From an uncultured delta proteobacterium (GTDB taxonomy: Bacteria; Desulfobacterota; Binatia; UBA9968), in NCBI GenBank assembly GCA_963840855.1, contig CAWJBB010000050.1, forward strand, positions 123,071-187,070: a stretch of 64,000 nucleotides of DNA, read 5' to 3'. Shown here piece by piece: positions 5,970-48,757 of this stretch. Both the position numbers and the translations under genes were made by a program. The notes under the pieces are model-generated. The model did not search any database, was not told where the DNA came from, and saw nothing but the letters and a program-made list of their open reading frames with translations. Each line of letters opens with the position of its first letter. The stretch's first letter is position 1.

Positions 5970-6112
5970 GTTCAACGTTCAAAGTTCAAGGTTTCAGACT
6001 GAACGACTTTGACTACAAATCAAACTGAACCACAACCCGGGTTTTGGCCATCCCCGAGTAAACGATACCAATTTGATTCCGGAACTTTGAACATTGAACC
6101 TTGAACTTTGAC
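5970..6112. repeat. GTTCAAN heptamer inverted-repeat element
   Basis: gttcaac-gttcaaa-gttcaag-gtttcag ... ggaact-ttgaaca-ttgaacc-ttgaact between convergent genes. Confidence 0.85.
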
Positions 6113-6963: not shown

Positions 6964-7041
6964 GGTTCAAAGTTCAAGGTTCAAAGTTCAATGTCCCCTC
7001 CCCACCTTGAACGTTGAACCTTGAACATTGAACTTTGAACT
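6964..7041. repeat. GTTCAAN heptamer inverted-repeat element
   Basis: Four GTTCAAN units followed by five TTGAACN units. Confidence 0.9.
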
Positions 7042-13301: not shown

Positions 13302-13389
13302 GGTTCAAAGTTCAAGGTTCAATGTTCAACGTTTCGGATTAAGATCTGCGTTTTGAATCCGAACGACCTTGAACCTTGAACATTGAACT
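13302..13389. repeat. GTTCAAN heptamer inverted-repeat element
   Basis: gttcaaa-gttcaag-gttcaat-gttcaac-gtttcggatt ... aatccgaacgacc-ttgaacc-ttgaaca-ttgaact. Confidence 0.9.
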
Positions 13390-34226: not shown

Positions 34227-34322
34227 CGTTCAAAGTTCAATGTTTAACGTTCAACGTTTCGGATTAAAACCCGGCACTTCCGGACCTCTTAACTTTGGAC
34301 ATTGAACCTTGAACATTGAACG
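34227..34322. repeat. GTTCAAN heptamer inverted-repeat element
   Basis: gttcaaa-gttcaat-gtttaac-gttcaac-gtttcggatt ... ttggaca-ttgaacc-ttgaaca-ttgaacg. Confidence 0.88.
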
Positions 34323-36427: not shown

Positions 36428-37207
36428 AGTTCAAGGTTCAACGTTCAATGGGCGTCGTGAGATTGGCGAATGAATGCCAGCCTCCGAGTCCGAAACGTGT
36501 CGCGGTAGGAACCGCCCTCGCGGGCGGCCCCCCGCACGGATCCGGACGTGCAGCATTACTGCATCCGGCTCTTGCCTTGGGTAATAACGCCATGGCGCAA
36601 CAGAAAATGAGAATGATAACACCTCACTCCTTCCCTGCTGACTGCCTGACGTATTCGCTCAAGCGCGCTGGACAGGATCTGCCGGCTCTGAGTCCGGAAC
36701 CTGTTACGTTCAAGCGTTTTCCCCTTGGCCAGTCCCCTTTCCTCCACTGCCTCCGCAGCCCCAGTGGCGGCTTTGTTCGGCAGCTTCGTAGGTCCTATGA
36801 GACTGTCCGACTTCGTGCGTCCTTAGACTTTCCGATGCGATTCCCTTTCTCGCAGACAGACACGGGATCTCTCGGCTTCCGCTCAAGGTGTTTGCGGGCA
36901 TGCTCAGGGTCTCAGACCGCGCAGGGTCCATAGGCGTCTCGCGTTTGCGACGCCTCCAGTTTTGCCTTCCGCTTAGTTCAAGAGCGTCGGCACCCCAGAG
37001 TGGCCACCGCTTTCGCGATGGTGGTTCAATTTCGCGGCTCAATGGCTGGCCTGCTCGTGCCCCTGTCAACGCTTCACCCTCGCCCTTGCGGACGAACGCA
37101 CATGACTCGGAGCCAGTGTGGATCGCTACTCCTTCACTGTATGAAACTTTCATTCACAACACCTTGCCGGCTTTTACCGGCGCATCTGAACCTTGAACTT
37201 TGAACGG
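36428..37207. repeat. GTTCAAN heptamer inverted-repeat element interrupted by a group II intron
   Basis: Arm gttcaag-gttcaac-gttcaat at 36429-36449 and opposite arm tccgaaacgt|intron|tgaacc-ttgaact-ttgaacgg. Confidence 0.85.
36499..37186 (-). mobile_element. Group II intron, non-autonomous (RT ORF almost wholly deleted), 688 nt
   Basis: 3' domain V GAGCCGGATGCAGTAATGCTGCACGTCCGGATC, domain VI ending CCTACCGCGAC; 5' end GATGCGCCGG (GTGCG-like); IEP N-terminal remnant KSDSLIGPTKLPNK...RTQSRQILSSALERIRQA fused to C-terminal remnant ...GVITQGKSRMQ. Confidence 0.92.
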
Positions 37208-44084: not shown

Positions 44085-44181
44085 CGTTCAAAGTTCAAGG
44101 CTTGCCCTGAGTCCATCGAAAGGGTTCAAAGTTTCGGATTGAGAGTCCTGACCTTGAACCTGGAACATTGAACCTTGAACT
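44085..44181. repeat. GTTCAAN element with inserted CTTGCCCTGAG...CGAAAGG REP-like unit
   Basis: gttcaaa-gttcaag-[gcttgccctgagtccatcgaaagg]-gttcaaa-gtttcggatt ... ttgaacc-tggaaca-ttgaacc-ttgaact. Confidence 0.85.
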
Positions 44182-48677: not shown

Positions 48678-48757
48678 GGTTCAAGGTTCAACGCGTTGAG
48701 TCTGCGCTTTCTCGCAAATCGCGAAACATTGAACTTTGAACCTTGAACTTTGAACGG
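48678..48757. repeat. GTTCAAN heptamer inverted-repeat element
   Basis: ggttcaag-gttcaac ... ttgaact-ttgaacc-ttgaact-ttgaacg between convergent genes. Confidence 0.85.

Follow-up and report, generated by a model that had tools for sequence, protein, structure and literature searches.

The 64,000-nucleotide (nt) stretch of DNA analyzed here (hereafter the window; positions 123,071 to 187,070 of contig CAWJBB010000050.1, GenBank assembly GCA_963840855.1, from an uncultured delta proteobacterium of the Binatia) carries on its minus strand a group II intron without an intact open reading frame (ORF), lodged in an element made of GTTCAAN heptamers. In all likelihood it is a non-autonomous intron, with a second exon-binding site (EBS2), a 33-nt domain V (D5) and an enzyme lineage that lacks the endonuclease (En) domain, and its exon-binding sites are set to a dispersed, family-specific, intergenic (GTTCAAN)n repeat. 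The same sub-lineage is found at the same heptamer position in dozens of unrelated soil-metagenome loci, in both ~1.95-kb and ~0.7-kb forms, and the first exon-binding site (EBS1) covaries with the exon across its relatives. Spliceosomal introns presumably descend from group II introns, which also serve as programmable gene-targeting tools, and a central question about the latter is how they spare the host yet find enough landing sites. The lineage described below would illustrate, in nature, a retroelement that lives off a different family of repeats.

An intron inside a family-specific heptamer repeat

A preliminary description of this DNA had called the segment at 36499-37186 an ORF-deleted group II intron, and the Rfam and translated searches agree with it (Table 1). 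The core model RF02005 is matched over its full length and far above its gathering score of 49, and the D5/D6 model (Intron_gpII, RF00029) is matched over its full length, 1-77, at 36499-36573 on the minus strand (39.6 bits, just short of the gathering score of 40; E = 4.3e-6). Group II introns have a D5 and a domain VI (D6) with a bulged adenosine close to the 3′ terminus; the letters here read as a D5, GAGCCG..CGGAUC, and a D6, ..CCUACCGC. The consensus termini of group II introns are 5′ GUGYG and 3′ AY, and the 3′ terminus here is AC. Apart from a deletion of ~1250 nt, the intron runs parallel to an ORF-carrying relative of 1945 nt (collinear over positions 2-585 and 1846-1916 of the latter), and it retains a remnant of the reverse-transcriptase N terminus; taken together, the remnant and the collinearity make "ORF-deleted" the correct term.

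The intron is antisense to both neighboring ORFs, which are on the plus strand, and its insertion site, GTTCAAGGTTCA^A (the caret marks the point of insertion), is within one arm of an inverted tandem-heptamer element. Removal of the intron joins ..CCGTTCAAAGTTCAAGGTTCA^ACGTTTCGGA.., with the inverted heptamers TTGAACGTTGAACCTTGAAC following ~50 nt onward on the same strand. The restored junction, ..GTTCAAGGTTCA^ACGTTTCGGA, had been equated with intact copies of the repeat, and this was borne out: GTTCAACGTTTCGGA is found six times in the genome, two of them in the window, where they start at 13324 and 34249, inside the arrays that had been placed at 13302 and 34227.

The repeat itself is abundant. 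The window contains 31 occurrences of GTTCAANGTTCAA against 0.00 expected (100 shuffles), and the 7.1-Mb genome has 890 GTTCAANGTTCAA dimers, 410 triple-heptamer matches and 480 arrays of 2-5 units each. Its arm pairs are convergent in 154 cases, the element of the intron among them, versus divergent in 13, with heterogeneous spacers of mostly 13-120 nt. Three tandem heptamers were recovered in 16 of the 41 genomes searched, counting that of the window and the unpublished genomes G009 and G015, with 0-1 matches for a reversed control pattern; 15 of the 24 other genomes of the same family have them versus none of the 16 in two sister families. Thus, the element is a family-specific dispersed repeat composed of inverted arrays of 2-5 GTTCAAN units. 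Any run of (NTTGAAC)n brings up a TGA in each frame by its third unit. Where both inverted arms have three or more units, all six frames are therefore closed, and such a pair can only be intergenic.

That the intron entered such an element is directly visible in related genomes. The DNA flanking it has orthologues in all four congeneric genomes (G001-G004). In G002, the alignment passes from window position 36498 to 37187 with zero bases between, and the locus reads ..GTTCAAAGTTCAAGGTTCA^ACATTTCGCA... The arm recurs in G001, where A and another short spacer come after it, again with no intron, and the loci of G003 and G004 are likewise without it. Shifting the boundaries by one base fails to restore the empty sites, which shows that the intron boundaries are exact. 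The window copy is thus a real insertion, at GTTCA^A, into a repeat element that already existed. Because the orthologous element is empty in G002 and G001, the repeat came first, and the order of events read from these alignments places the arrival of the intron after the species split from its congeners.

Table 1. Coordinates of the intron, its predicted exon-binding sites and the elements discussed with it (positions are those of the window unless another contig is named; IBS, intron-binding site)
Feature	Position	Strand	Extent and basis
ORF-less group II intron	36499-37186	minus	688 nt, 5′ GAUGCG to 3′ CGCGAC; Rfam matches, empty sites, collinearity with ORF-carrying relative
Domain I core	36907-37150	minus	Rfam group-II-D1D4-6 (RF02005), 177.3 bits, E = 1.1e-51, model 1-225 of 225
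Domain V	36539-36571	minus	33 nt, GAGCCG at start; RF00029 alignment
Domain VI and 3′ end (..CCUACCGCGAC)	36499-36537	minus	RF00029 alignment
Reverse-transcriptase N-terminal remnant	~36631-36861	minus	86 residues (3-88 of a 514-amino-acid relative); tblastn, 55.8% identity, E = 5.9e-13
Predicted EBS1, UGAACU	36975-36980	minus	9-nt terminal loop of hairpin 36970-36986 (CGCU/AGCG); Rfam alignment, fold, covariation
Candidate delta, U	36981	minus	Nucleotide 5′ of EBS1
Predicted EBS2, UUGAAC	37024-37029	minus	Unpaired stretch 5′ of lineage-specific hairpin 37004-37021; internal-loop region of Rfam model
Predicted IBS1, GGUUCA	37187-37192	minus	Last six 5′-exon bases; pairs with EBS1, one G-U pair
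Predicted IBS2, GUUCAA	37193-37198	minus	Preceding heptamer; complementary to EBS2, adjoins IBS1
First 3′-exon base, A	36498	minus	+1 is A in 25 of 26 distinct lineage 3′ flanks
Host repeat element	36429-37207		Arm CCGTTCAAAGTTCAAGGTTCA^A (37187-37207 plus 36498), spacer of 49 nt (36449-36497), inverted arm TTGAACGTTGAACCTTGAAC (36429-36448)
Heptamer elements, further window examples	5970-6106, 6965-7040, 13303-13388, 34228-34321, 44086-44180, 48679-48755		
Related introns (loci L002, L003, L005)	C10:3098-3767, C27:169648-170332, C87:46733-48647 of G000 (genome of the window)		At GTGATCAA(G/A)^TGA, directly before stop codon

Insertion sites and exon-binding sites of the lineage

Public metagenome contigs were scanned with a 22-nt pattern around EBS2 that contains no exon letters. 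This recovered 103 stretches with 106 copies, 94 of them with at least 14 nt of 5′ exon, which give 85 distinct 30-nt flanks. The 5′ exon ends in GTTCA in 77 of these 85 and is exactly GTTCAANGTTCA^ in 51, and a reversed control motif does not occur once among the flanks. Among the 3′ flanks, the single exception to A as first base (Table 1) is formed by another intron attached head to tail. The heptamer interrupted is either the last of its arm or an inner one, and both spacers and outer flanks vary. Copies in named public metagenome-assembled genomes (MAGs) of Candidatus Binatia or Deltaproteobacteria are at ..GTTCAAAGTTCA^, ..GGTTCAAGGTTCA^ and ..GTTCAACGTTCA^ (L095, L082 and L102). These flanks support homing into the heptamer repeat as a property of the sub-lineage, which is what the preliminary description had proposed; the support does not extend to the genome of the window by itself, where 1 of 590 matching sites is occupied (see below). 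The related expectation that all copies would be at GTTCA^A likewise holds for the sub-lineage but not for three other related introns of this genome, which have an EBS1 target of their own. Two tandem arrangements were also seen, with two heptamers between the two copies at L143 and no gap between two head-to-tail copies at L183.

As to the means of recognition, the loop of the CGCT...AGCG stem in domain I had been taken as EBS1 and a second UUGAAC as EBS2. The Rfam alignment places the former in a terminal loop and the latter in an internal-loop region, and an independent fold agrees that EBS1 is in a loop and EBS2 single-stranded (the fold energy itself is not unusual, with a z-score of only -1.31), so that neither UUGAAC motif falls in a stem. 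However, the repeat spells the very word that these two motifs spell, and a match within a single copy therefore proves little; covariation in relatives is needed. Relatives in other genomes with other targets have the exon/loop pairs AUUUCG/CGAAAU, CGUUCA/UGAACG, GUCAGG/CCUGAC and UCCUCC/GGAGGA. We assembled contiguous exon-to-loop stretches in two alignments, A3 (19 introns) and A4 (15 introns), and kept all picked rows, counting as mismatches the out-of-register rows L112 and L200 of A3, which insert one base earlier, and L017 of A4, which has a four-base head. EBS1-IBS1 cells are paired in 93.0% of 114 cases in A3 and 92.2% of 90 in A4, whereas slid registers give 43-58% and 23-63%, respectively. 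Changes on both sides affect five of six pairs and 33 cells in A3 (shuffled mean, 9.4) and all six pairs and 22 cells in A4 (shuffled mean, 7.8), and in neither alignment did any of 500 shuffles score as high. Kinship alone can let sequences beat shuffles without structure, but such an artifact is made less likely here by the slid registers and by how many pairs changed on both sides. Covariation with the exon across these 34 introns thus supports UGAACU, at the position first named, as EBS1.

EBS2 is supported less formally as UUGAAC. A sister lineage with UUGAAAC at the EBS2 position sits behind GUUUCGG, and a matching GTTCAA is present upstream of IBS1 at 67 of the 85 sites; its last base is at -7 for 51 of them, at -8 for 5 and at -9 for 11. 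The heptamer's variable base also follows the loop, since exon CC (-7/-6) goes with GG after UUGAAC at 6 sites and A[AGT] with UA at 42. Of the pairing drawn earlier for EBS1, the part with GGUUCA, including one G-U pair, stands; the extra pairing of the first 3′-exon A is possible, but covariation does not support it. A delta-delta′ contact beside EBS1 is a feature of IIA introns and EBS3 in the coordination loop one of IIB introns. A U stands 5′ of EBS1 in the window lineage, where +1 is A, and equally in relatives where +1 is U, so that a delta pairing receives no support from covariation, and a by-eye search for a position switching from U to A between lineages, as a candidate EBS3, found none. 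A third TTGAAC inside the intron, in the reverse-transcriptase remnant, is probably there by chance.

In sister sub-lineages, EBS1 has been retuned to other short repeated words, as has EBS2 in the cases where it is readable; one such word is a GTTCGA variant of the heptamer. Their sites are GTTTCGGATTTCG^ (L078 and L094), GTTCGACGTTCGAGGTTCG^ (L071) and CCGTTCGCCCTTCG^ (L056, L064 and L099).

Spread of the lineage and competing explanations

The 106 metagenome copies comprise 42 ORF-less (~0.7 kb) and 31 ORF-carrying (~1.95 kb) introns, 29 that run off a contig end and 4 without a recognizable D5. Both forms use the repeat site (25 of 28 ORF-carrying and 27 of 31 ORF-less copies). All 38 ORF-less copies examined, that of the window included, share one deletion, with a left break at 546-592 and a right break at 1840-1855 of the reference, and a homologous filler of ~35 nt is common to them in the correctly anchored alignment rows (5 rows are mis-anchored). 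The shared deletion and filler suggest that the form arose once and then spread to many loci, for which an enzyme supplied in trans would be needed. Such an enzyme is encoded by the siblings: 27 metagenome loci gave single full-length tblastn matches (1-514), and the full-length sibling protein scores 338.9 bits against TIGR04416 (cutoff, 300). Pfam recognizes RVT_1 alone in it, and the protein is too short to accommodate an endonuclease domain. Its relatives on plasmids, with 54-60% identity in tblastn, are introns of Ralstonia, Burkholderia and Variovorax annotated only as "ltrA", for whose class a literature search gave no useful lead. Against 35 full-length ORF-less copies, the window intron has 77.7-91.2% identity (median, 83.8%), and a DNA contig of run X1, with other flanks, differs from it at 5 of 709 positions.

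We propose that the intron lariat would join the reverse transcriptase of an ORF-carrying sibling in a ribonucleoprotein, which would reverse-splice into the GUUCAA-N-GUUCA^A strand and then be copied into DNA. As the enzyme lacks an endonuclease domain, priming would probably come from replication intermediates. The repeat would thereby offer hundreds of intergenic landing sites per genome.

Three other explanations were weighed. It is extremely improbable that the window copy is a one-off ectopic retrotransposition whose chance landing gives EBS matches that merely mirror the commonness of the repeat. The genome does hold a single copy of the sub-lineage, and its three other related introns sit elsewhere, but 77 of 85 distinct sub-lineage sites end in GTTCA, their differing 30-nt flanks show that the metagenome copies are not one locus resampled, EBS1 covaries with the exon, and the different EBS1 of the three other introns matches their own target. 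Hitch-hiking, in which the repeat element is itself mobile and carries the intron as cargo, so that shared flanks stem from copying of the whole unit, is very improbable as well. The flanks are always the same short motif, and the element resembles a miniature inverted-repeat element; however, G002 and G001 hold the orthologous element without the intron, insertions are in last or inner heptamers amid differing spacers and outer flanks, and exon bases -6/-7 covary with EBS1.

Less remote, but still unlikely, is structure-assisted targeting, whereby a hairpin of the inverted arms in single-stranded DNA would be recognized besides the pairing, in the manner of IIC introns at terminators and attC sites. 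The preponderance of convergent inverted pairs (154 versus 13), the constant location of the intron in the 5′ arm of the potential hairpin and the preference of an enzyme without an endonuclease domain for single-stranded targets speak for it. Yet the intron has a matched EBS2 and a D5 of 33 nt, whereas in IIC introns D5 is shorter and EBS2 is missing; the place of insertion in the arm shifts between last and inner heptamers; and, by symmetry, every GTTCAA array is a 5′ arm on its own strand, which leaves the arm bias uninformative. We thus favor targeting of the repeat through EBS1 and EBS2.

Several observations nevertheless weigh against this reading. At the level of the intron, the D5/D6 match is 0.4 bits under the RF00029 gathering score of 40, and the 5′ end GAUGCG has one extra A after G1, off the GUGYG consensus, whereas siblings start with GUGCG. 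The GAUGCG start recurs in 50 of the 85 distinct metagenome copies, 16 of them ORF-carrying and 19 ORF-less, and being common to both forms, it is a trait of mobile copies rather than decay of the window copy. Among the sites, 8 of the 85 flanks have no TTCA end and a further 10 have no GTTCAA at -7 to -12; moreover, this sample was picked by its EBS2 sequence and is hence uninformative on the rate of EBS2 variation. A tree of the 5′ 440 nt interleaves ORF-less and ORF-carrying copies (11 changes, at least 5 of them forced by well-supported branches), which could fit a single deletion origin only if copies recombine or the short alignment misleads. Finally, in this genome only 1 of the 590 matching sites is occupied, and the sole related enzyme gene, on contig C87, is split into several frames.

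The last two points bear on the state of the window copy. The sub-lineage has one copy in the genome, which offers 317 exact GTTCAAGGTTCAA sites and 590 GTTCAA[AG]GTTCAA sites. An assembly-wide tblastn search with the sibling enzyme for an intact related reverse transcriptase gave only the broken C87 gene and the window remnant; the assembly is 94% complete with 8% contamination, and the enzyme gene could thus be missing from it. With one occupied site and no intact reverse transcriptase, the window copy is probably stranded and immobile. The three related introns (C10, C27 and C87), 74-76% identical to it in the 5′ 158 nt, sit at GGTGATCAA(G/A)^TGA and have (C/U)UUGAU loops at the same positions, matching their own target. 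Those of C10 and C27 are ORF-less, and the enzyme gene of the C87 intron is frameshifted. So is the ORF upstream of that intron, an ABC_sub_bind (PF04392) gene.

Metatranscriptome contigs from three studies (runs X15, X16 and X17) are 90-99% like the intron over window positions 36485-37205, with the flanks hardly covered. They are suggestive of a stable intron RNA; as assembled contigs cannot reveal splicing, DNA carry-over is possible and relatives contribute, they are not counted as expression or splicing. In the X15 contig, which covers window positions 36494-37188, the intron 3′ end is joined via 7 nt to the 5′ end, which we tentatively read as tandem insertions in neighboring heptamers, as at L143 and L183, rather than as an RNA circle. 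A joint of 36456 to 37187 in X17, with 9 other letters, was considered as a spliced product and rejected, being another copy of the repeat.

The wider clade and known systems

A 23-nt domain I pattern gathered a wider clade at 67 genome loci (L037-L103). At 41 of these, the 5′ exon has the form CAT-N9-11 ending in (C/T)TCC or CTCT, followed by ^GTGCG. Read on the other strand, such an exon gives a Shine-Dalgarno sequence and a start codon, and an ORF of at least 80 amino acids begins at that ATG on the opposite strand at 34 of the 41 loci. The class of other exons in this tally takes in ..TTCG^ sites, since the head was mis-set for exons ending in G. The introns at these sites have GGAGNN as EBS1 and, in 10 of 10 such A3 rows, NNAUG at the EBS2 position. 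The observation covers L207:1124-1358 besides L037-L103, and a cultured example is on a Burkholderia thailandensis plasmid. The literature searched yielded no published account of group II introns at Shine-Dalgarno sites. We lean, with some reserve, toward a scenario in which a widespread clade lacking the endonuclease domain targets short motifs present at hundreds to thousands per genome rather than single homing sites: the parent form, with EBS1 GGAGNN and AUG at the EBS2 position, would insert antisense beside Shine-Dalgarno sequences and start codons, and one branch would have re-set both sites to the family-specific tandem heptamer and then spawned the 0.7-kb non-autonomous derivative, which would be spreading in soil bacteria like a miniature transposon.

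In a 2015 review, three target specificities are given for bacteria, namely, homing sites, terminators and attC sites, and bacterial group II introns without an ORF are called rare (PMC4424553). Programming of both EBS1 and EBS2 to a dispersed repeat unit is a route absent from the listed specificities, and a single ORF-less derivative at many loci bears on the view of such introns as rare dead ends in bacteria. If the scenario for the clade is true, it would add natural target specificities beyond those three and mean that bacteria can harbor ORF-less introns in abundance. A literature search of incomplete coverage that excluded supplements turned up no earlier account of group II introns forming a lineage directed at a dispersed tandem repeat. 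With short parts and explicit pairing rules, the system is directly testable.

IIC introns have no EBS2 and a shorter D5 and insert just 3′ of a hairpin. In the window intron, a predicted EBS2 is present, D5 has 33 nt and the insertion is inside the 5′ arm, so that, by these features, it is not a IIC intron. The analogy with IIC targeting of terminators and attC drawn in the preliminary description is apt for the strategy, since the IIC and IIC-attC introns likewise use an abundant, harmless, palindromic intergenic landing motif (PMC4424553, PMC3001079). It does not extend to recognition, for which the window intron, unlike them, appears to use a 6-nt EBS1 and a 6-nt EBS2 on the repeat, in addition to matching RF02005 and having the longer D5.

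The nearest mechanistic parallel is with the trans-mobilized ORF-less introns of cyanobacteria. Like those of Thermosynechococcus elongatus (PMC2882425) and the dnaN/RIR introns of Trichodesmium (PMC12584367), the window intron has kept the ribozyme while mostly losing the domain IV frame and belongs to a lineage in which ORF-less copies coexist with ORF-carrying siblings sharing their target. It differs in that copies with and without the ORF are roughly equal in number in our sample (31 and 42, respectively), and in that the lineage is present in many soil metagenomes and bound to a repeat. A specialized IIB1 clade at start and stop codons (Avi.groEL and EcKTE56.groEL; PMC12584367) resembles it in a stereotyped insertion context and in tandem copies, and the three related introns of this genome, each immediately followed by a TGA stop, resemble that clade too. 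That clade is described as having a large domain I insertion and an endonuclease-bearing enzyme (PMC12584367), whereas the window lineage lacks the large insertion, with only an 18-nt hairpin after the intron 5′ end, and its sibling enzyme has no Pfam domain beyond RVT_1. RmInt1 of Sinorhizobium meliloti (PMC1802570, PMC4615759) is alike in its enzyme without an endonuclease domain, its multicopy repeat target and the divergence of targets among its relatives; unlike RmInt1, which targets one site in an insertion sequence, the window lineage has as its target a 7-nt tandem unit with hundreds of dispersed copies.

Elsewhere in the window, a tRNA gene is located at 136-209 on the minus strand (63.6 bits).

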